Source of the DNA: a phage
Strand: one strand, 5' to 3'
DNA: 45,624 bases
Assembly: GCA_033193195.1 (NCBI GenBank)
Contig: GCA_033193195.1_4326.1
Notes under the pieces: model-generated
The model's input: the letters and a program-made list of their open reading frames with translations, nothing else
Told to the model about the DNA's origin: nothing
Databases searched by the model: none
Made by a program: the position numbers and the translations under genes
In this document: positions 1 through 39,174 of the stretch, piece after piece
Position numbering within the stretch: position 1 is the stretch's first letter
Layout of the letters: the number at the start of each line of letters is the position of its first letter

Positions 1-24
1 AAAAAAACGAGAGAGGATTTCAAA

Positions 25-696
25 ATGGTTGTTTGGTCTTTATTTGATGGTTCAGGGCTGGCTGTGAAAGATTGGGCTGAGGCTGGTCACTAGTGCTACT
101 GTTTCAACTTTGATGAGTCTGACCACGGTAGTTACGGGGATTTAAATGCAAAATTTGAACATGAGAACATCACCTACGTTAATGCCTGGATAGATGGCAA
201 CTTCGACTTTGATGTGAAGCCTGATATCATTTTAGCGTTCCCGCCGTGTACGGATTTAGCCGTGAGCGGGTCAAGGCACTTTGAGCGAAAGCGACTGGTT
301 AACCATAACTTCCAGATTGAAGCTGCGGATACATGTAAAGTTGCTTTTAACTTGGCTAATAAGTACGAAGTCCCATACATGATTGAGAATCCAATCAGCG
401 TACTGTCATCACTCTGGAGAAAGCCTAATAAGACTTTCCACCCATATGAATACGGAGGCTATTTGCCGGAAGATGATTTACACCCGTTTTTTAGCGACCT
501 AATAAAGCCAAGAGACGCATATCCTAAGAAGACATGCATTTGGTATGGCAATGGGTTTAAATGGCCAGAGGCGATTCCTGTGGACGTTAACGATGGATTC
601 TCTGACCAATACAAGAAGCTTGGTGGGAAGAGTAAGAAGACAAAGGTAATTCGCAGTCTAACTCCTCGCGGTTTTGCAAAAGCAGTCTTCATAGCA

Positions 697-714
<18 letters not shown>
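25..714 (+). pseudogene. DNA (cytosine-5) methyltransferase-like gene interrupted by in-frame TAG at 91..93
   Basis: ATG 25 preceded by GAGAGG; N-term MVVWSLFDGSG (motif I-like), then TAG at codon 23, same frame continues to AFPPCTDLAVSG (PC motif IV-like) and MIENP (ENV-like); track ORF 214..714 is the downstream part. Confidence 0.5.
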
Positions 715-1012
<298 letters not shown>

Positions 1013-1013
<1 letters not shown>

Positions 1014-1948
1014 TGGCTCAGGGTATCTATATAGACCTTAATGACGGAAGGAATCCAATGACAATTACCGCAGGGATGAGGGCGTTAAACTTCGCTGGAA
1101 ACTTTAACGTTAATAGTGGTGGCTTTAGTAAGACATTCTCAATTCAGGGAAATGAAGGTGCATCACGTTTTTTAATTCCTAATAATGGTGCCTTCAGCTT
1201 CGAACTTGACAGGGGTGTTGAGGTTTATTATATAAGTGGATTTTCATCAACACCTACATCTGGGACAATCTCAATAGGTTCAGAGAATGGATATTCTGAC
1301 AGGGTCACGTCATTTTCAGGGACTGTTGTTGAGGTCTTGATGGCATCAAGCGGCCAGGGCATATACGTTGCTGATAGTTGTGATTTTGCATCAATAACAA
1401 CTGCTGGCAGGTTGCTAATATGCAAGTACTCTAAAAGGGTAACTTTTACAGGCTCATTCAATCTCCCTATTTATGGAATACCGTTCGGTAAGTGGGATAA
1501 TGATGGAGTTTCAGTTGAGTACAACGGAAGCGGCCAGCTTATTTGCACAAACATAAACACAGGAAATACTGGTGACACCCCAGGAAGTGTAACTATGGAC
1601 CTTGTGATATTTCAGATGGTTGCACCAACGCCTGGGCCTGGCATAAACATTTTCAACTCTAACAATGTTTGCACATTCTCAACATTGACAAGACCATTGG
1701 TTGTGTCTGGATTTATAAGTCTGTCAGGAAGCAATCAATACATAGGTAGTTCATACTTCCCAATACTTAGATGTGGGTTTAACACCAGGGCGACACGTGC
1801 TTACAAGGAGTTGCGAAATAAGGGAATTGTTATGTCCGGTGGATACGTTAGATCTGGTACTGGATCAAGGATTGTGAGATACGAGATTGGTAATAGACCA
1901 GATGTAACCATATCAACTCCATTGCCATACTTGCCTGATATGTATTAA
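1013..1948 (+). CDS. hypothetical protein (beta-rich, Gly/Ser-rich)
   Basis: ATG 1013 overlaps upstream stop (TAATG) with AAGGAG upstream; track start 1004 is GTG. Confidence 0.45.
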
Positions 1949-1976: not shown

Positions 1977-4900
1977 TTAGAACGTGCCTACAATAACTTT
2001 CCCTCCATTCGGTAGGTTAACCGTGATTCCATTGCCGTTAATCTGAACCGTATTGTTAGTTCCGTTAAATGCAAAGTTACCACTATCTGCGTAAAGCCTT
2101 CCATGAATTTCTGCATTACCAGACTTCTCAATCCTCCACCCAGCACTTCCTTGAACAAAGTTGTTTGATTGAATCGAGTTACCAATCTTCGCGTTAGTGA
2201 TTGAACCATCCTGAATCACTGTGCTTTGAATGAATACCTGATTACCTTCAACTACGAAAGGCAATGACCACTGACCGGAACCTGAACTAACACCGTTACT
2301 GATTGCGAACCTGTTAGCATCAAAGATGACCTGACTACGAACATTGCCATCAGAACCAGTTAGCGCCATACTCATGCCAGAACTGTACTCAACGCCATTG
2401 TATTTGAGGCCAAGTTTAATCCCGTACTGAGCACCAATTGAATCGGCAGTAACGTAAGTGTCCAGCTTCTCATTTAACGCAGCCTCATTATCACCTAGCC
2501 TTGCAGATAAAGCAGTGTCCGCAGTGGTCCTTGCTTGCGTCTCTTCCGCTAGCGCCGTATCAATCCTTGTCAATGAAGCTACAATCTCATCATCAATCTG
2601 CGCCTTAAGCTGCGTCAGAGCCTCTACGCGAGCCCTTTCTTCATCGGCGATAAGATTCACAGCCTGAACAAATTCGGCCTTCCTCTTGCCGTTTTCCTTC
2701 GTCATTCTACGCACGTCACCATCATTAGCCAGGGCGTTCTCAATTATTGATTCCGCTTGCGCCTGAATAGCTCCGTTTGACTCAATGGCATTCTGTTGGA
2801 GATACTTGAACCCATCTGAGTTTTCTATATCAACCTTAATATCACCAATGATTGACGACACATCATCGCTTGCCATACCCCTTACAAAATCAGTCCATGG
2901 TGAGACGTTACCAATCTTGTCAATCAGTCGCGCCCTGTACCAGATGACCTTTCCAGCAGGAAGTGTAGTATGCCAGTACTCGTAACTCGGGTAAGGCACC
3001 AGAGTCAGAAGGCTAGCATTCTCTGGTGTATAAGTACCATCACCATTGTCGGCTACTTGCTGCAATTCAGTGTATGACGTATCGGCTGAGTTTTCAGGAA
3101 ATCCCCACTTAACCCTAATGCCGAATATTTCATCATCTGAAGCGGTGATTACTGTAGGTGAAGAAGGGGTCCCAATCTTGCCTGTGAGGCTTACTGAAAC
3201 AATGTCAGACCATGCGGATACGTTTTCAGTATCAGAAACGGCCCTTACGCGAACCTGGTAAATTCCGGCATAGATACCTTCAATATCAACCTCTGTGCTT
3301 GCTGTGCGCGGCACGTTAATCCAGTTTCCGTTCTCCTTGCGCCACTGGACCGTGTAGGTTTTCGCGTACTGAACCTTGTCCCACGTGATTACCATTGTCT
3401 CAACTGATAAACCCTGAACAACCTTACTGTAACTGCTAACCTGAACATTCTCTGGTGCCAGCAGTGTATCCGGCTCGACGATTGAAGTCGGCCTATCAGT
3501 AATGTTTACGCCGTAATCAATTTCGTCGTATTTGTTAGGGTCGTACTCAACCGCTGTAATCGTGTAACCAAACGCATCATCTCCATCGCTGTCTGCTTTT
3601 TGAATACCGGTCACAACATATTGCTGAAGAGCAAGATTTTCCTTATCAATCGCAAATACTGTGTCAGGCTGAGGAGTAAAGCTAAACGCTGTATTAAGTT
3701 GCAGCGTCATACCATCTTCAGATACAGATGCAATGGTCCTGTACTCTGGCATTCCATCAGGCTTGTTAATAAGAATCCTGTCGCCAGCAGCAGCGTCAAT
3801 CTTAAAGGGTACGAAAACCTGCAACCCACTAACAGACTCAATACGCCCAGAAAGATTAAGCGTGTAGTTGCTAGACCATGCCTGGTCATTAACTGCAATC
3901 ACTTCACCAATCATTGGGATCATGCCTTCCAGACCAGTAGTGAAACTGATTGTCTCACTGCGCAAGTTTGTCTTTAACAGCCATCGACCGCGTCTGTTTG
4001 CCTCACTCCTGCGTGTACATCCAATAGCGGTAAGGTCAACAGGGTTGTAACCAAAACGCCTTGTTGCCTCTAACTCGAATACTGGCTCAACATCCTGTTG
4101 GTATGAGTTTTCAACGTCATCAAACTGAACGTTGGCAACCGTGTAAAGTGACTTATCGCTACCAAATGTACGGTTAAAAACACCATCAACAACGTTGTCA
4201 TTGGTGAATACGTACGATGGTTGACGCGGCTTATCGACAACAATCCCTATCTGCTCGCCGTCATAGAATGTCAGCCCACGGAAGATAGAGCAAATATCAC
4301 GGATTACCTGATATGCTTCAACTTTCTGCTGAATGACAACATCACACAGGTAGCGCGGCTCAACTCCACCCTTACCATCTGGAACCATCTGGTCACAGAA
4401 TTGCGCCGCCTCATACAGACCCCACTTATCAATAGTAATGCCAAGCTCTCGCTGGTCAAGTCCGTAACGCTGATTCGTCACCAAGTCGTAAAGAACCCAC
4501 GCCGGGTTATTGGAATACGCCATCTTAAAGGTGCCGTTCCAGGTTCCGCTGTAAGTCCTTGTCTCTGGGTTGTAGTTATTTGGAACGCGAATCAACTTCC
4601 ACTTCTTCTTGATTGAAATCGTCGGGATTCCGTTAGGGAAGAGGTCAGAACTGAACTCAACGTAAACCAGAGCTGTAAGTGGGTAGCGGAATTTAGCATC
4701 AATTACTTCCTGATAGGTCGTAATTTGCATGTCGTTAACCAGCGTCGAACTTTCTGAATCTGCCGTGATCTTACGAACCCTCACCAACGCACTCGAGAAC
4801 TCAGCAGGAAGGTTAACCCTGATACTTCTGTCGTACCCGCTAGTTGTCTTGCCATTAACTACTCCGCGCGTGTACTCAGTGTATGTAGCGCCATCAACGG

Positions 4901-5348
4901 ACAGGTCAATCGCATACTCGCAAGTGGTACCGTTAAGATCTCCGTTACTTTCCTGATTAATCAGACGAGGCCAAAACAGCTTAACCCTAATCGCTGATAG
5001 CTGGGTGTTATTAACAGCAATGATGTAAGGAGTTGAGTTTTTAATCTCCCTGTTCACTTGCACTTCCGAGTTAGCACCCTCTAGCCCGGCAATGTAATCC
5101 TGACTCTGTGTGCCAGGGCGAAACTCTGCCGTTACACCCTCGTAGTTGTATGTGCCATTCTGGTTCTGTACAGGAACGTCAGCAAGGTAAAGGTCCTTTA
5201 GGGAGAATGAGCTATCAACCTCACCATCAGAAACAGCTAGCAAAACCTTAACCTTGTTTACGGATATCAGGTTATCAGGCTGCTCTACAGGTTGGTGCTG
5301 CTTTGGCTGTCCGCCCTTACTTCCATAAATCTTAATTTCTTCCGCCAT
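1977..5348 (-). CDS. central tail fibre / host specificity protein (lambda J-like)
   Basis: 1123-1136 aa, last gene of M-L-K-I-J-like block; start 5348 chosen for GGAG 9 nt upstream (track start 5387 has no SD). Confidence 0.7.
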   Translation of the reverse strand: MAEEIKIYGSKGGQPKQHQPVEQPDNLISVNKVKVLLAVSDGEVDSSFSLKDLYLADVPVQNQNGTYNYEGVTAEFRPGTQSQDYIAGLEGANSEVQVNREIKNSTPYIIAVNNTQLSAIRVKLFWPRLINQESNGDLNGTTCEYAIDLSVDGATYTEYTRGVVNGKTTSGYDRSIRVNLPAEFSSALVRVRKITADSESSTLVNDMQITTYQEVIDAKFRYPLTALVYVEFSSDLFPNGIPTISIKKKWKLIRVPNNYNPETRTYSGTWNGTFKMAYSNNPAWVLYDLVTNQRYGLDQRELGITIDKWGLYEAAQFCDQMVPDGKGGVEPRYLCDVVIQQKVEAYQVIRDICSIFRGLTFYDGEQIGIVVDKPRQPSYVFTNDNVVDGVFNRTFGSDKSLYTVANVQFDDVENSYQQDVEPVFELEATRRFGYNPVDLTAIGCTRRSEANRRGRWLLKTNLRSETISFTTGLEGMIPMIGEVIAVNDQAWSSNYTLNLSGRIESVSGLQVFVPFKIDAAAGDRILINKPDGMPEYRTIASVSEDGMTLQLNTAFSFTPQPDTVFAIDKENLALQQYVVTGIQKADSDGDDAFGYTITAVEYDPNKYDEIDYGVNITDRPTSIVEPDTLLAPENVQVSSYSKVVQGLSVETMVITWDKVQYAKTYTVQWRKENGNWINVPRTASTEVDIEGIYAGIYQVRVRAVSDTENVSAWSDIVSVSLTGKIGTPSSPTVITASDDEIFGIRVKWGFPENSADTSYTELQQVADNGDGTYTPENASLLTLVPYPSYEYWHTTLPAGKVIWYRARLIDKIGNVSPWTDFVRGMASDDVSSIIGDIKVDIENSDGFKYLQQNAIESNGAIQAQAESIIENALANDGDVRRMTKENGKRKAEFVQAVNLIADEERARVEALTQLKAQIDDEIVASLTRIDTALAEETQARTTADTALSARLGDNEAALNEKLDTYVTADSIGAQYGIKLGLKYNGVEYSSGMSMALTGSDGNVRSQVIFDANRFAISNGVSSGSGQWSLPFVVEGNQVFIQSTVIQDGSITNAKIGNSIQSNNFVQGSAGWRIEKSGNAEIHGRLYADSGNFAFNGTNNTVQINGNGITVNLPNGGKVIVGTF

Positions 5349-5395
5349 ATCACATAGCTCCGCATTTGTTTTGACCATTTGTGCCATTCTACACT

Positions 5396-5421
5396 AAATA
5401 AAAAACCCGCACTAGGCGGGT
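5396..5421 (-). terminator. hairpin plus T-run between I-like and J-like genes (possible attenuator)
   Basis: CCCGC-ACTAG-GCGGG followed by T6 on minus strand. Confidence 0.45.
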
Positions 5422-5427
5422 CTTAAT

Positions 5428-6003
5428 TTAAGCGATATCTTCTGAGTAACTCCCAGCACTAAATACAGAGCCGCCAACACTTCGATAACCGTATGGCAAA
5501 CATATTGGGTATCCAGCAGCTACAGTGTTAACAGCCGACCCGAATGCGTATGAAGCCCTGTTTTGCGCAGACTCCTGCGTCTTTAATCCAGTTGCTTGTG
5601 GGGAAAGTAACTGAGCTACACCGCCAGCAGCTAGTGAGATACCAGCACCAAGAACAGCGGTTGCAATACCACCAGTAAGGAAGAAGCTAGCACCAATGAG
5701 CGCCGCACCTATTACTGTCTGGAATAACCCTCCGCTTTTTCTTCCTTGAGGTATTGGCATAATACGAATCTCACCAACTACCTTAAAATCCTTGATACGA
5801 TGTTCATTAAGGTTCTTCCCGTCAGCAAATATTGCGAACCTAGTCCTTTGTCCAGCATGGCTTTGCATGAACTCTTTAAATGCTGGAATGTTTACCGATA
5901 ATGCTCGAAGTGCTTCCGGTACAGACTCCACGCACAACTCATGGACTTTCCCGTACCTTCTGCCAAGTGACAAGCCCAGCTTAACCTTAATCAGTCTCTG
6001 CAT
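5428..6003 (-). CDS. tail assembly protein (lambda I-like)
   Basis: position after K-like gene; hydrophobic Gly/Ala-rich C-terminal half. Confidence 0.5.
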   Translation of the reverse strand: MQRLIKVKLGLSLGRRYGKVHELCVESVPEALRALSVNIPAFKEFMQSHAGQRTRFAIFADGKNLNEHRIKDFKVVGEIRIMPIPQGRKSGGLFQTVIGAALIGASFFLTGGIATAVLGAGISLAAGGVAQLLSPQATGLKTQESAQNRASYAFGSAVNTVAAGYPICLPYGYRSVGGSVFSAGSYSEDIA

Positions 6004-34525: not shown

Positions 34526-34938
34526 CTTATCATCTCTGCGAATGCCGCAAGAAAACCCTCTCTTCCATAAGCAACCGCTGCGAAACCGCCTGATTCCCTT
34601 ACGCTTTTTAGGAATGACTTTTGCTCATTGCTAACTGGGCTTGCTTGCGTTTTGCCAGCCCTCTTTAACTCTATGGCGCCAAATGGATAACCGCCACGCA
34701 ATGACTCAGGTATCAAGAATAAGCAGTCTGAAACACCTTTAAGGAGGCCCTTAGCCTGGTCTTTCCTTGCCTGGCCAATGCTCTTTTTATTTTCGTTAAT
34801 CGTGTGCCAGTAAACAATCTGCGGATAGTTGTATTTCACCCAGTCAGAGCAAAATATTTGTTCGTCATCTTCCTTTGGGCATGACTTTACAGGGCCGCCG
34901 TAGAACTCGATGTAATCAATTTTGTCTGTAATTTTCAT
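34519..34938 (-). CDS. VRR-NUC-like PD-(D/E)xK nuclease
   Basis: D..LFLIPE..GAIELK motif pattern; stop TAG lies inside promoter element. Confidence 0.5.
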   Translation of the reverse strand: MKITDKIDYIEFYGGPVKSCPKEDDEQIFCSDWVKYNYPQIVYWHTINENKKSIGQARKDQAKGLLKGVSDCLFLIPESLRGGYPFGAIELKRAGKTQASPVSNEQKSFLKSVRESGGFAAVAYGREGFLAAFAEMIRK

Positions 34939-34939
34939 G

Positions 34940-36649
34940 TTAATCCTCCATCGTGAATGATTTGTTGGCGATAATGTCTTGAGACTTCTGGTTTTTACGG
35001 TGTGTGATTCTCAATGGGGCACGGAATAGATGTGCATTTGTCATAATCATTCTAGCATTACGCAATCTGCCAATTCTGAATGCCTCAGTCCTGTTATCGA
35101 TGTGTGTTAAGCAGAAAGCCTTCCATTTAACAGAGCAAACGCGATGGTCTGATTCAGGGAAGAATGTTTCATAAGCTCGGAACTTATCTCCACTATGAGC
35201 CATTACCTCATATGAAGCAACGATCCCTGACTGGTTCTTTGTTAACCCAATCTTGAAGTCATAAACTCGCAACCAGTCCCCCTTACGATACATTTTTCCT
35301 GATAACTTAGCATTCGGGTCTATGAGCATCTCACCACAGCATCTGCAATTCTTAGCTGCAATATCATTCTTCTCACCGCATCCTTTCTTAATGATAGCTT
35401 TGGTCTGTGGGTCCACTATATCTTCACACAGTCTAAACTGAAAGAAGTGCTCACAGCGCTTCCCGTCAATTACGTTATTGCAGCGCCTGGCTAATGGAGA
35501 GTTCACATAAGAGCATGCCTGACAGATTCTTGGCTCACCAACACGCTTTCTTGCTGACCTAAATTTCTGGTCTTGTACCTCTTCTATAATTGGGTCGAAG
35601 TAAAGTTCAGCCATATCATCAAGCGTTCCAGCAAAATCAAGAACAACATGGTCATCTTTTACCATTCCAGCTTCTTTGTGCTTCTTCTTAAGGATACGCA
35701 TACCACGACCAAGCAACTGAATGAGTAGAGTAATGCTACCAACCTTCCTCAGGATAATGCTTGTATCCCACGGGGGGCAGTTTACGCCAGTTGTGAGGCA
35801 ACCAATCTGAAATATGAACTTATATTCTCCGTTGGCTGCCTTCTCAAGTATCTCTCTACGCTTATTCTCACCAGTGGAGTTGGTAACTATCGCCCAAGTA
35901 ACACCTTCTGGAAGTGCGGCTGCCGCCTCCTCGCAATGCTGTTTGCTAGCGCAAGTTACCAATGCAGCATTCCTTGTTTCCATAAACCTAGCAGCAAATC
36001 CCATTATCTTTTGTGTCATCGTTTGGTTTTCGTGAATCTTTGCAGCCATCGCATCCATTTCTTTCTTGCTGAAGTCCTTAACCCCATCACTTCCATCAGG
36101 AGTGAACTCACTAAGGTCGTAGCCCAAATCACCAACTTCACCGTAGACAGTAGGAACAACGAACCCCAAGTCAACAAGGTAGCTGGTTGGCACTTGCATT
36201 ACAGTTTTGCGCCAGAATCCACGGACATTTGGGTTACTAACTACAATGTGGTCGTTGTTACGGTACGGGCTACCAGTTAACCCAAAGATACGAAGTTCGC
36301 GACCGTACTTCTCCTTGCATCGACGCTTCATTTCGGTAATGATTAACGTGTATTGCGCGCGACCAGTGCCAAGAAGCCCGGTATTCACACCATCCTTAAA
36401 GACCATCTCACCCTTCTTCGTGCTCATCTGCTCGAATGTTTCCTCATTCTCTTCAGCTTCTACGATATCCATATGGTCCACCATGTGGCAATTATGTGCC
36501 ACGACCCCGTCAGCAATGAAATTATGGTGCTCAGGCATCTCTATATCCCAAACAAGTTCCTTGCCAATGGGTGAGATGTCTTTAATTTTGCTTGATTTTG
36601 TATTCCACGCCATTTTACATGTGCTTACTAATTCTCTTAAAAAACTCAT
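34940..36649 (-). CDS. SF2 helicase C-terminal fragment preceded by intein C-terminal splicing segment
   Basis: N-term ..ELVWDIEMPEHHNFIADGVVAHN then CHMVDH; helicase motifs LTGSP and QLLGRGMR; C-terminal Cys-rich zinc-finger-like region; ATG 36649 with GAGG upstream. Confidence 0.75.
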   Translation of the reverse strand: MSFLRELVSTCKMAWNTKSSKIKDISPIGKELVWDIEMPEHHNFIADGVVAHNCHMVDHMDIVEAEENEETFEQMSTKKGEMVFKDGVNTGLLGTGRAQYTLIITEMKRRCKEKYGRELRIFGLTGSPYRNNDHIVVSNPNVRGFWRKTVMQVPTSYLVDLGFVVPTVYGEVGDLGYDLSEFTPDGSDGVKDFSKKEMDAMAAKIHENQTMTQKIMGFAARFMETRNAALVTCASKQHCEEAAAALPEGVTWAIVTNSTGENKRREILEKAANGEYKFIFQIGCLTTGVNCPPWDTSIILRKVGSITLLIQLLGRGMRILKKKHKEAGMVKDDHVVLDFAGTLDDMAELYFDPIIEEVQDQKFRSARKRVGEPRICQACSYVNSPLARRCNNVIDGKRCEHFFQFRLCEDIVDPQTKAIIKKGCGEKNDIAAKNCRCCGEMLIDPNAKLSGKMYRKGDWLRVYDFKIGLTKNQSGIVASYEVMAHSGDKFRAYETFFPESDHRVCSVKWKAFCLTHIDNRTEAFRIGRLRNARMIMTNAHLFRAPLRITHRKNQKSQDIIANKSFTMED

Positions 36650-37629
36650 CTTGTGCCGACCTCGTTGTTATTGATACTGAGTAAAGCTCTCTCTTTTTCT
36701 TGCCGCAAATATAGCTTATAACCTTAACTCCGTCATTAGCAATAAATGCTATTAGCGCATCAACTACTGATTGAACTTCACGCCTGCTAAATGATTCGGT
36801 GTGGATTTCTACAACCCTCCCCCCTGAGCTTACAGTGCAATGACCATCATCACCAAAGTAAGCAGCCCAACCAACTGGATCAAGCTCTCTGCATATCTTT
36901 CCAATATCGTAACCATCCTTAGAATTTCCGTACTTATCAGCATATGAATCCAGAACTTTCGTACATGATGTTGATACGCAAAACCAGTTGTCGCCAAATC
37001 CAGGGTTTTTCTTCTCCCTGTATCTAGGGTTTAGTTTTGCAAACCTTTCAACCTTGCTTAGTGCGTGCTCCTTATTTCCATATTCCAAGATAGCCTATGC
37101 GTTCCTTTTTCTGTATTTTTAATCAAGCAACCATCACCAGCCATTGCCGCAAGAATGTTTTGATGTAAAAAGTCATCAACCTCCATTTATGGGTTGACGG
37201 TTGAATTATGATGCCCCGTTCTGTAATCCAAATAGAAATCGAAAGGGTTCTTAAGAAGTACGCCTAACCCCTTGCTTGAATGCGGCATAACTTTTTCACC
37301 ACAGCCACACTTGCACGCAGAAGCTTTTTCGTAAATTTGTCCTGCGAGCCGTCTAGCGACAGATTCATCCCAATACGAAGTTTTCCCGCTTCTACCCAGC
37401 AGCCGTTCGAATAAAGTTTGTGTGTACTCGTGCATTTTATTTCCTCTCCGCTTTCTAATTTAATTGATAATACATGTCTTACACCATTAGTAAAAACTCT
37501 TTTTGGCTTATGATAGAAGTAATCACCAGTGCTTTCGTTTATGCATTTTATTTTATGATTGATAAGGTCTTCGCTATCAATCCTCATCATCCCTGAATCG
37601 GTGGTTATCATCGTGTCTCCAGTTAAGCA
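36491..37629 (-). other. intein inserted in helicase DECH motif; LAGLIDADG endonuclease core disrupted
   Basis: blocks CLTGDTMITT and CTSTHKL..W in N-extein frame; ILAAMAGDGC and WAAYFGDDGHC in two other frames; in-frame TAA 37187..37189; length 1139 bp is not a multiple of 3. Confidence 0.7.
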
Positions 37630-38073
37630 CTCATCTATCGCGATAACAGCAGGAGCATAGTCACCAAGCCCCTTAAACAAGCCGTTAGCAGCCGTTCCCT
37701 CACTAGCCACTATGGTTGGATAGTAAACTGATTTAACGTTAAGGCCAGCGCAATAGACGCTATTACGGATGCCGAAATTACGAAGTTCCTCTGCGTTCTG
37801 GCTGATAATCTCTGACTGGCGAGATAGGACCATGTAAGGAAGGCCAAGCTGTTCCATTCGTTTCCCAATCATGGCGAGTATAATTGTCTTACCAGCAGAC
37901 ACCGACAGGTCTGCGATGAATGGCGCTTCGTACTTGCCAATAGCCTTACCGATTGCGTCAAATGTCACGCACTGGAATTCGTAAGGCGTTATGTCTCCAA
38001 ACTGGTAATCTTTCTGAATCTGTTTAATTTTCTCTTTATCAAAGTTCGCCACTAAGCGCTCTACTGGAAGCAT
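37264..38073 (-). CDS. SF2 helicase N-terminal fragment fused to intein N-terminal splicing segment
   Basis: Walker A SVSAGKT, ..VIAIDE then CLTGDTMITT; stops 121 codons into intein. Confidence 0.75.
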   Translation of the reverse strand: MLPVERLVANFDKEKIKQIQKDYQFGDITPYEFQCVTFDAIGKAIGKYEAPFIADLSVSAGKTIILAMIGKRMEQLGLPYMVLSRQSEIISQNAEELRNFGIRNSVYCAGLNVKSVYYPTIVASEGTAANGLFKGLGDYAPAVIAIDECLTGDTMITTDSGMMRIDSEDLINHKIKCINESTGDYFYHKPKRVFTNGVRHVLSIKLESGEEIKCTSTHKLYSNGCWVEAGKLRIGMNLSLDGSQDKFTKKLLRASVAVVKKLCRIQARG

Positions 38074-38112
38074 TTTAAATATCCCTACAGTTTGTTAGTT
38101 CGTTGCATTGCT

Positions 38113-38169: not shown

Positions 38170-38643
38170 ATGTGTGAAATTGACAAGCGAACTATCAACG
38201 GCAATAACGGAACCATCCGCACGCAAGACAAGAAACAGCGCAAACGACCGTCAGGCTACTACGTATTGAAAGATGAAGTAAAGGCTGGGCTACGAGCTCG
38301 TCTGGAGATGGTTCTTGATTTCTACGGCACGAAGGCCAATATCGCCAAGCAGTTAAATGTATCTCACCAGACTGTAGAGCAATGGTTTGATCGCGGGATG
38401 ATTTCGGCTAGAGGTGCCCAGAGGGCTCACAATGCATACAAGCGAAATAAGGAAGGCTTTAGAGCTACGTTCTGCCGACCAGACCTGCAATTCGACGGAA
38501 ACGGTAAGCCATTAACGCTTAGATGCAAGAAACGCCATATGCTGCGGGTTGTTACCGAAGCTGAACTAGCAACAAAGCCACCATGTCGACCATGGCGCAA
38601 GAATAAGATTGCCAACGAAGCAGCACGAAAAGCTAAAGATTAA
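38170..38643 (+). CDS. HTH DNA-binding protein, candidate transcription regulator
   Basis: GTKANIAKQLNVSHQTVEQWFDRG helix-turn-helix-like segment; GAGGTAA SD. Confidence 0.55.
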   Translation: MCEIDKRTINGNNGTIRTQDKKQRKRPSGYYVLKDEVKAGLRARLEMVLDFYGTKANIAKQLNVSHQTVEQWFDRGMISARGAQRAHNAYKRNKEGFRATFCRPDLQFDGNGKPLTLRCKKRHMLRVVTEAELATKPPCRPWRKNKIANEAARKAKD

Positions 38644-38694: not shown

Positions 38695-39174
38695 ATGAAC
38701 TGGCATGATTATTTTTACTATGTAGATGGCAAATTGCATTGAAAGATTAGCACTGCAAGACGTGTTAAGGTTGGCGATGAGTGCAACTCACTATCTACAT
38801 CTGGCTATTACAAAGTGTCTGTTAATGGCTTTAGGACTTATGTACATAGAGTTGTGTGGGAGATGTTTAATGGAGAACTTCAAAATGGCGACTACATTGA
38901 TCATATAAACCATAACAAATTAGATAACAGAATAGAAAACCTAAGAGTAACAACAAATCAAGGTAACTCAAGAAATTGCAAGCTTAGCGTTTTATCAACA
39001 ACTGGTTATTGTGGAGTGGCAAAGCTAAATCACGGAAAATTTAAGGCTTACATCAAGGTTGACGGCAAGCAGCTACACCTTGGTAACTTCGATACTCCAG
39101 AGCAGGCGTATAAAGTAAGAATTGAAGCAGAGAGAAAATACAACTTTCACGAAAATCACGGTTTAAGCAAATGA
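38695..39174 (+). pseudogene. HNH-AP2 homing endonuclease-like gene with in-frame TGA at 38740..38742
   Basis: MNWHDYFYYVDGKLH-stop-KISTARRVKVGD (Trp expected in G.L.WK motif); HRVVWEMFNGEL..DHINHNKLDNRIENLR HNH; YCGVAKLNHGKFKAYIKVDGKQLHLGNF AP2-like; GGGAGA SD. Confidence 0.65.

Follow-up and report, generated by a model that had tools for sequence, protein, structure and literature searches.

In the cyanobacterial DnaE split inteins, such as Npu and Ssp, the two halves are encoded at distant loci and carry no endonuclease remnant. Other natural split inteins, among them gp41-1, NrdJ-1 and IMPDH-1, occur in 'fractured genes', in which a free-standing endonuclease gene lies between the split-intein halves, and the model put forward for them includes a stage of endonuclease loss (Dassa et al. 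2009, NAR, PMC2677866). Inteins with out-of-frame or antisense endonucleases have been described in actinobacteriophages (Gosselin, Arsenault & Gogarten, bioRxiv 10.1101/2025.01.02.630785), as has the 'hidden' HNH endonuclease of ShiLan (PMC11855218); the former work proposed that a free-standing endonuclease invaded the intein, and cautioned that loci of this sort get misread as inteins in decay. Here we describe a helicase gene at positions 34,940 to 38,073 of a 45,624-nucleotide stretch of phage DNA (NCBI GenBank assembly GCA_033193195.1, contig GCA_033193195.1_4326.1; below, the window denotes this whole stretch), which is interrupted in its DExH box by an intein. Comparison of the sequence with its relatives suggests that a trans-splicing split intein of the fractured-gene kind probably rebuilds the helicase, with an endonuclease gene nested out of frame.

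Like the fractured genes, most of which are from phages, the locus is a conserved DNA-metabolism gene broken at an intein, and it has the same order on one strand: N-extein with the N-terminal intein half (IntN), endonuclease open reading frame (ORF), and C-terminal intein half (IntC) with C-extein. The endonucleases of the fractured genes are of the GIY-YIG or Vsr-like type and never LAGLIDADG, whereas here an I-SceI-type LAGLIDADG endonuclease is found. Their host genes encode gp41/DnaB, NrdA/J, DnaE, IMPDH, ligase or terminase, unlike the superfamily 2 (SF2) DExH helicase here, and they are known from metagenomic reads only, whereas the present arrangement also occurs in cultured coliphages and Pectobacterium phages. 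With the actinophage inteins the locus shares an endonuclease within the intein region in another reading frame, here -1 in all LAGLIDADG members. Those inteins are contiguous, however, with frame-3 endonuclease-VII-like genes or antisense LAGLIDADG/Vsr genes, and the reported cases include no sense-strand -1-frame LAGLIDADG gene, no split and no enterobacterial phage. What is new here is the union of two features recognised only recently, a fractured gene and an out-of-frame endonuclease within an intein, in one conserved, triple-overlapping arrangement. We found no description of the helicase case in the literature searched, which included the Ymer genus paper and the BASEL collection paper and was not an exhaustive library.

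The divided helicase and its intein halves

The locus lies on the minus strand of the window, and the helicase is divided over two ORFs, the N-ORF (38073..37264, 269 amino acids) and the C-ORF (36649..34940, 569 amino acids). The N-extein (37630..38073) comprises helicase residues 1-148, including the Walker A motif SVSAGKT, and ends with ..VIAIDE of the DExH box. The C-extein (34940..36490) begins with the +1 Cys that completes DE-CH and continues through LTGSP, QLLGRGMR, a Pfam Helicase_C domain and a zinc-ribbon-like C-terminal region to the stop codon TAA at 34942..34940. Excision of the 1139-nucleotide insert (37629..36491) joins IDE to CHMVDH inside DExH motif II. The conceptual joined product of 664 residues aligns with the insert-free, 664-residue helicase of phage CY1 in one ungapped block at 83% identity, both exteins being collinear with it; the junction reads IDE|CHMVDH in the window and IDEAHMVDH in CY1, and a native DECH is present in P0059, another insert-free homolog. 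The first-pass annotation, made from the letters alone, had reported the ORF coordinates and motifs, the GAGG, the TAA and the length of the insert, all of which proved correct by direct sequence check, and its claim that removal of the insert restores a DECH box is borne out by the ungapped product. The host gene matches a RadD/YejH-like SF2 model of NCBIfam and is the SF2 RadD-like DExH replication helicase of a T1-like coliphage (Drexlerviridae, Braunvirinae). No Rfam family matched at E <= 1 within 36300..37800, which argues that the insert is not an intron.

IntN (37264..37629, 121 codons) follows the N-extein directly, the N-ORF reading ..VIAIDE|CLTGDTMITT.. with Cys1 and block A (CLTGDTM), then ..CTSTHKLYSNGCWVEAGKLRIGMNL with block B (CTSTH, 37434..37420), and closing with a basic tail, ..KKLLRASVAVVKKLCRIQARG, at the stop codon TAG (37266..37264). 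IntC (36491..36649, 53 codons) consists of a head, MSFLRELVSTCKMAWNTKSS, followed by blocks F and G with the terminal His-Asn, and it runs into the C-extein as ..KIKDISPIGKELVWDIEMPEHHNFIADGVVAHN|CHMVDH.., that is, ..VVAHN|C. The C-ORF has its own start codon (ATG, 36649..36647), preceded by a Shine-Dalgarno-like (SD-like) GAGG at 36660..36663 with a 10-nucleotide spacer; in other lineages SD-like purine runs lie 7-10 nucleotides 5' of the conserved Met. The NCBI curated intein models, which have their own score cutoffs, recognised both halves at a level far above chance: TIGR01445 (intein_Nterm) scored 34.6 bits against a cutoff of 24.5 at N-ORF residues 149-221, and TIGR01443 (intein_Cterm) 27.1 bits against 15.6 at C-ORF residues 34-54. 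Among solved structures, the best sequence match to the joined IntN-IntC core was the Spl DnaX mini-intein (7cfv), with a full-length alignment over residues 2-131 (E = 1e-17) that places the break between the halves in the loop where endonucleases normally insert. Since 7cfv is a contiguous, engineered mini-intein from host DnaX, unlike the intein here, this match provides support at the level of the fold only.

Cys1, the T-x-x-H motif of block B, the terminal His-Asn and the +1 Cys are kept in the window and in all relatives, and we assign the intein to class 1, inserted at the DE|CH box and naturally split. The geometry of a natural split intein recognised in the first-pass annotation stands: each half shares a reading frame with its extein, a separate start codon opens the C-half, and the endonuclease of the window is defective. 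The two halves are in different frames because a 1-nucleotide deletion makes the insert 1139 nucleotides long, and the intein frame across the insert contains 22 stop codons. With the halves in different frames, only trans-splicing could therefore rebuild the helicase in the window.

Compared with the DnaE split inteins, the split falls likewise in the endonuclease-insertion loop, the class 1 residues are the same, no functional endonuclease is present (as in the window), and the cores are of similar size, about 95-100 residues for IntN and about 34 for IntC. Unlike in DnaE, the halves here are separated by 614 nucleotides that contain a decaying endonuclease, and one transcript probably covers both. 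The tail of IntN is rich in positive charge, whereas the core of IntC is acidic; this complementarity is suggestive only, and its polarity is opposite to that of DnaE.

An endonuclease gene nested out of frame

The relatives account for the middle of the insert. In coliphage ES (OR466728) the middle is occupied by one intact ORF of 284 amino acids, which runs in the -1 frame with respect to the intein and contains both LAGLIDADG motifs. The block B Cys codon supplies its ATG (AA-ATG-CAC), and GGAGAGG lies 7 nucleotides 5' of this start; in the window, the Shine-Dalgarno-like GGAGAGG (37443..37449) is encoded in the IntN codons S-G-E, 7 nucleotides upstream of the ATG at 37435..37433. The purine-rich SD-like element and this ATG are found at the identical place in every lineage, and the place of the ATG is kept down to homologs of 24% identity. 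The start is 57 codons upstream of the IntN stop, so that the ES endonuclease overlaps IntN by 172 nucleotides, and at its other end it overlaps the C-ORF by 68 nucleotides (71 in phage Abuela). In the fractured genes, too, the endonuclease gene runs at its 3' end into the beginning of the IntC ORF (6-69 base pairs there, 68 nucleotides in ES, 35 in the window), whereas at the 5' end they have a non-coding gap of 27-51 nucleotides before the endonuclease instead of a start inside IntN.

Intact endonucleases of about 280 residues and I-SceI type are present in ES, AN_ECEAS, five Pectobacterium phages and more than 10 metagenomic lineages. Against the Pfam LAGLIDADG_2 model (PF03161, cutoff 25 bits), those of ES, Abuela and two contigs, L009 and L012, scored 29.2, 33.1, 37.1 and 89.2 bits, respectively. 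An AlphaFold model of the homolog from phage Ymer, with a mean predicted local distance difference test (pLDDT) score of 83, shows a duplicated alpha-beta-beta-alpha-beta-beta-alpha core. A fold search with this model returned I-WcaI (E = 4e-9, template modelling (TM) score 0.70) and I-SceI as best matches, in a TM range of 0.70-0.72, and ranked these free-standing or intron-encoded enzymes above the intein-embedded PI-PfuI and PI-SceI; a search of the Protein Data Bank (PDB) by endonuclease sequence gave no significant match. The N-terminal ~60 residues of the Ymer homolog, corresponding to the overlap with IntN, are predicted to be helical with moderate confidence (pLDDT of 56-79). The endonuclease family is a small one: among 5.8 billion proteins, all of its homolog clusters (20/20) are stand-alone ORFs of 167-294 amino acids, and in none of the 20 does an in-frame version lie inside a long protein. 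The endonuclease might have originated from a free-standing gene that invaded a mini-intein, which is the scenario modelled by Dassa et al. (2009).

These observations overturn part of the first-pass annotation, which had pictured an in-frame endonuclease domain decayed by indels and a single in-frame intein of ~380 codons that resequencing might restore. The relatives possess an intact, separate gene in the -1 frame, and the ES insert, although exactly 1140 nucleotides or 380 codons long, has 10 stop codons in the intein frame. Sequencing error, or repair to a cis-intein, was on this account rejected as the source of the split. It appears extremely improbable that indels from sequencing or assembly mask an ordinary intein that splices in cis and has its LAGLIDADG domain in frame. 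The 1-nucleotide deletion of the window does sit in a short G run (GG instead of GGG), and all assemblies of the contig, which measures 45,654 base pairs and belongs to the assembly of an E. coli isolate, may stem from one read set. Restoring the base, however, yields only the ES state with its 10 stops, one of the two TAA codons in the window discussed below is a substitution in any case, and NCBI (third-party annotation (TPA) proteins HEF0535435-7), Logan (run DRR502069) and ENA contain the identical broken ORF. The split also recurs in independently sequenced genomes from Pakistan, from Denmark and from many metagenomes.

A further possibility is programmed ribosomal frameshifting at two places (-1 within the first overlap, +1 within the second), which would produce a canonical IntN-endonuclease-IntC precursor that splices in cis. 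Inserts with an intact endonuclease are always a multiple of three, N and C halves share a frame, and G-AAA-AAG strings occur in the first overlap of the window and ES, as such a mechanism would have it. Across lineages, however, that overlap has no conserved slippery heptamer, and the endonuclease has its own conserved SD-like element and ATG well upstream of the IntN stop; the multiple-of-three rule follows from every segment being coding in some frame. Frameshifting is moreover impossible in the window, with its TAA and frameshift, and in a contig with a deletion (L011), although the halves are still intact in both. We consider this explanation scarcely credible.

Alignment to the relatives, a check suggested in the first-pass annotation, located the damage in the window as a single 1-nucleotide deletion plus two TAA substitutions, three endonuclease lesions specific to the window lineage. 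Segment 1 of the endonuclease (37187..37435) begins at the ATG on the block B Cys codon (A-TGC-AC), contains CKCGCG (37315..37298) and the 172-nucleotide IntN overlap in the -1 frame, and ends at a TAA (37189..37187) where ES has TCA. Segment 2 (37058..37186) carries the first LAGLIDADG motif, ILAAMAGDG (37156..37130), and loses its frame at the deletion, GG at 37079..37078 instead of GGG in ES and AN_ECEAS. Segment 3 (36615..37088) carries the second motif, WAAYFGDDG (36869..36843), and the 35-nucleotide overlap with the start of the C-ORF; it ends early at a TAA (36617..36615) where ES has GAA, and it scored 24.8 bits against the LAGLIDADG_2 cutoff of 25. The presence of the LAGLIDADG motifs in two frames, pointed out earlier, is true of the window, but only through its own 1-nucleotide deletion; in the relatives both are in one frame. 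A single G->T change at 36617 creates both the GAA->TAA change in the endonuclease and a Trp->Cys change in the IntC head (TGG->TGT on the coding strand, STWKMAW to STCKMAW). Set against its close relative P0044, which has the 'SGGRV' as well, the window has gained the frameshift, R->I, G->C and GAA->TAA, each of which harms the endonuclease frame. The window represents a post-homing stage, in which the endonuclease is dead and both splicing halves and both exteins are intact.

The nonsense codon of segment 1 is directly followed by an ATG (TAAATG, 37187..37192; ..NP, stop, MEVDDF..), and endonuclease variants of 201 amino acids that begin at the Met of MEVDDF are found on other contigs (P0041, P0043, P0044 and P0046). 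Several of these variants, on other contigs of 45-48 kb, probably share the TAA, and they may be endonucleases that termination-reinitiation produces, either in two pieces or truncated at the N terminus. A pattern scan of viral contigs across the TAA site gave no match, nor did a megablast search of complete E. coli genomes, and with the neighbouring VRR-NUC protein as query, only the window contig and a short contig ending before the insert were retrieved.

Conservation of the split and its rivals

The entire 3.2 kb is present at 95% identity to the window in coliphages ES and AN_ECEAS (PP944860; both Drexlerviridae/Braunvirinae), in which the N-ORF stop and the C-ORF start are the same as in the window. 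The Pectobacterium phages Abuela, Amona, Ymer, Koroua and Sabo, whose endonuclease is 42% identical, have the identical three-ORF layout and frame relations and an insert of 1140 nucleotides. Further lineages came from IMG/VR and Logan/ENA contigs, with endonucleases 66-69% identical to that of ES in L006-L008 and L015, 54% in L013, 45% in L014 and likewise in L016 and L017, 38-44% in L010 and L011, and 37% in L009. All of these (L006-L011, L013-L017) have the split layout, with the endonuclease ATG always on the block B Cys codon and in the -1 frame. Across the split relatives IntN stops 118-123 codons into the intein, the start Met of IntC lies 53-56 codons before the +1 Cys and is kept in most lineages, and inserts with an intact endonuclease measure 1122-1149 nucleotides, always a multiple of three. 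Catalytic residues are kept over split lineages spanning 34% to 99% identity. An exhaustive N-ORF search of 1.8 billion cluster representatives found about 23 clusters (at 50% identity) of N-halves of 236-313 amino acids that end just past IntN. The split is carried by eight cultured, plaque-forming phages and is hence compatible with viability. We conclude that the split layout is an ancient and widespread arrangement, and in all likelihood a functioning one and not a wreck.

In the database entries of these phages, the N-half of ES (OR466728; L001 1528..2337) is named 'minor tail protein' and the C-half (L001 3130..4662) 'putative single-stranded DNA binding protein', while the N-half of Abuela is annotated as 'hypothetical protein'. 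The labels on the ES halves are misleading.

The ratio of nonsynonymous to synonymous substitution rates (dN/dS) was estimated by the Nei-Gojobori method within lineages all carrying the split (L006/L007/L008 and Abuela/Amona). It was 0.00-0.05 for the exteins, at synonymous rates (dS) of 0.26-1.4, 0.08-0.14 for endonuclease-only segments, 0.08-0.35 for IntC-only segments, and 0.07 for IntN-only segments in L006/L007/L008. The values, for the most part 0.02-0.35, suggest that purifying selection acts in split lineages on most of the intein-half, endonuclease and extein segments. Intein and extein dS are similar in L006/L007 (about 0.4), which indicates joint divergence after the split was already present. 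Where IntN and the endonuclease overlap, dS falls to 0.05-0.13 in both frames, compared with 0.21-0.48 in most segments without overlap, which is what dual coding predicts. In split members, 6-17 stop codons interrupt the intein frame where it crosses the endonuclease, a number equal to the expectation from synonymous shuffles, so this frame is unconstrained there; with those stops, neither read-through nor repair can yield a cis intein.

The same data bear on whether the helicase is dead or dispensable, its ORFs being remnants while a host helicase substitutes. Phages can do without some of their replication genes in the laboratory, and the endonuclease of the window is clearly decaying. Both exteins, however, are intact at every one of more than 15 loci, their dN/dS is very low at substantial dS, and the joined product has no gap relative to the insert-free homolog, while the unconstrained middle of the intein frame gained its stops over the same time. 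A dead helicase is improbable in our estimate. Like the indel explanation, it had been left standing by the first-pass annotation, and both are now strongly disfavoured, as the same stop and the same Met are found again in independently sequenced cultured phages and, under purifying selection, in over 10 divergent lineages.

Somewhat less remote, although still unlikely, is the idea that the intein halves serve as dimerisation modules only and that the helicase halves assemble non-covalently, with no ligation. A precedent is reported for the endonuclease-split NrdA of Aeromonas phage Aeh1 (PMC3045599), and the basic IntN tail and acidic IntC core would favour association. Residues needed for the chemistry only (Cys1, the block B Thr and His, the penultimate His, the terminal Asn and the +1 Cys) are nevertheless kept in all split lineages, and intein-only dN/dS is 0.07-0.35 in most comparisons. 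The break also falls inside DExH motif II, where an appendage of 170 residues would probably disturb the ATPase site.

Several points weigh against trans-splicing as we propose it. The SD-like element of the C-ORF is weak (GAGG at 10-nucleotide spacing), and it is assumed that the helicase is essential in these phages. The dN/dS segments are short (26-64 codons), and recombination can distort the estimates, so that all are rough values; for IntN-only segments of Abuela/Amona the value is 0.80, which is not low. The window lineage has accumulated too few substitutions since the death of its endonuclease for a selection test on its own halves. The ~25-residue basic tail of IntN and the ~20-residue head of IntC are alternate-frame readings of the ends of the endonuclease gene, sampled N-half clusters ending in ..KLLRA[SV]xAVV.., the +1-frame reading of the CKCGCG codons. 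The conservation of the tail (..RASVAVV..) and of the head (..MAWNTKS..) is inseparable from the constraint on the overlapping endonuclease (CKCGCG, NGVEYKI). Finally, the Trp of the IntC head, invariant in all other members seen, is replaced by Cys in the window; its invariance may only reflect the overlapping endonuclease codons.

Trans-splicing by a split intein remains the reading that we prefer, and its course might be as follows. One transcript would carry all three ORFs; counts of internal promoter-like and terminator-like sites were no higher than in shuffled sequences, so nothing argues against a single transcript. Translation would initiate independently at the two internal ATGs, IntN and IntC would associate to complete the HINT fold, and trans-splicing would yield the 664-residue helicase with its DECH box. 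In the relatives, the endonuclease would cut insert-free helicase alleles and thereby drive the homing of the entire cassette.

Contiguous relatives, signs of mobility and a possible birth of split inteins

Contiguous inteins with nested endonucleases occur at the same kind of site. On a 91-kb contig, L012 (1724..4531) encodes a different DExH helicase with its intein in one ORF of 935 amino acids. Its nested ORF (2785..3735) opens at the block B ATG, runs in the -1 frame and encodes a 316-residue LAGLIDADG_2 protein (89 bits, 24% identity). The intein frame of L012 contains no stop over the 1197-nucleotide insert, against an expectation of 10.6 +/- 2.0, and zero was not attained in any of 2000 synonymous shuffles; selection seems to hold the linker frame open above the nested gene. 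Likewise, L021 (501..3410) encodes a contiguous helicase of 969 amino acids whose intein spans 405 codons; nested within it, in the -1 frame, is a LAGLIDADG_2 ORF of 323 residues (81.8 bits), which begins at the block B ATG and has two CxCGCG-type motifs. A contiguous intein of 270 residues at the same DExH site in L020 (501..2945) contains a nested ORF of 217 residues, from about position 994 in the +1 frame, that is DUF559/Vsr-like (29.5 bits against a cutoff of 20.6), so this site also harbours an out-of-frame endonuclease of a second class. The L012 contig also encodes a family A DNA polymerase (3..1865) with a conventional intein containing an in-frame LAGLIDADG_3 domain (52.6 bits), which shows that canonical and nested-gene inteins coexist in one genome.

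At the other extreme, the locus in L011 (2809..3435) has suffered a deletion of ~514 nucleotides, leaving an insert of 626 nucleotides in which the endonuclease is reduced to a 55-codon stub and a C-terminal remnant; neither the N-half nor the C-half is damaged, and they lie in different frames. In a crude neighbour-joining tree for IntN, made without support values, all 16 split members fell into one clade and the contiguous ones outside it, which hints that the split arose once. The contiguous L012 and L021 match the concept derived from the actinophage inteins, to which the clade of the window adds closure of the intein frame, that is, the split. On balance, we favour the view that these loci form a large, apparently undescribed family, in which a free-standing I-SceI-type LAGLIDADG gene lies out of frame in an SF2-helicase intein with its ATG always on the block B Cys codon. 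Its members might then represent stages in the birth of a split intein: a contiguous open frame (L012, L021), a closed frame with an obligate split intein that is still homing (ES, Abuela and the rest), a decaying endonuclease (the window), and a deleted endonuclease (L011).

The insert appears to have moved recently. Between the window (34900..38100) and ES (L001 1501..4701), about 1% of positions differ over the insert and ~900 nucleotides downstream of it, as against 5-12% upstream and up to ~20% further downstream. The profile is mosaic: per 100 nucleotides, the count of differences is 0-3 from the insert to ~35750 but 5-12 in the flank upstream of 37630 and 6-23 in the sequence downstream of 35700. 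The tract of low difference is one-sided, reaching into the C-extein only, and resembles a one-sided co-conversion tract. Between L010 and L011, IntN is 98.8% identical at the DNA level and the adjacent extein 81%, from which both the transfer and the deletion in L011 would be recent. Both patterns would fit recent lateral transfer with co-conversion.

Further endonuclease-like genes lie close by. On the plus strand of the window, a gene for a 119-residue HNH_3 endonuclease (38815..39174, 66 bits) is located between the primase gene and a Cro/HTH-like ORF of 157 residues (38170..38643); ES and AN_ECEAS have only ~58 nucleotides in its place. It is a second, free-standing homing-endonuclease insertion beside the helicase locus. 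In L008, an ORF of 194 residues (5331..5915), HNH-like as judged by eye only, lies between the helicase C-half and the VRR-NUC gene and is absent there in L006 and L007.

Automated annotation pipelines would label loci of this kind as pseudogenes. Natural split inteins are rare and heavily used for protein ligation, and a family of ~23 clusters in easily grown phages of E. coli and Pectobacterium could be exploited; if the proposal is true, it supplies new, probably orthogonal, natural split inteins. The three overlapping ORFs also offer a system for studying their translation, with a measurable dual-coding constraint. With contiguous, split, decaying and deleted states side by side, the family provides a system for the rise of split inteins and their persistence after the death of the endonuclease, and, if the proposal is true, it would make the long-standing model in which endonuclease invasion breaks genes and creates split inteins testable in culturable coliphages.

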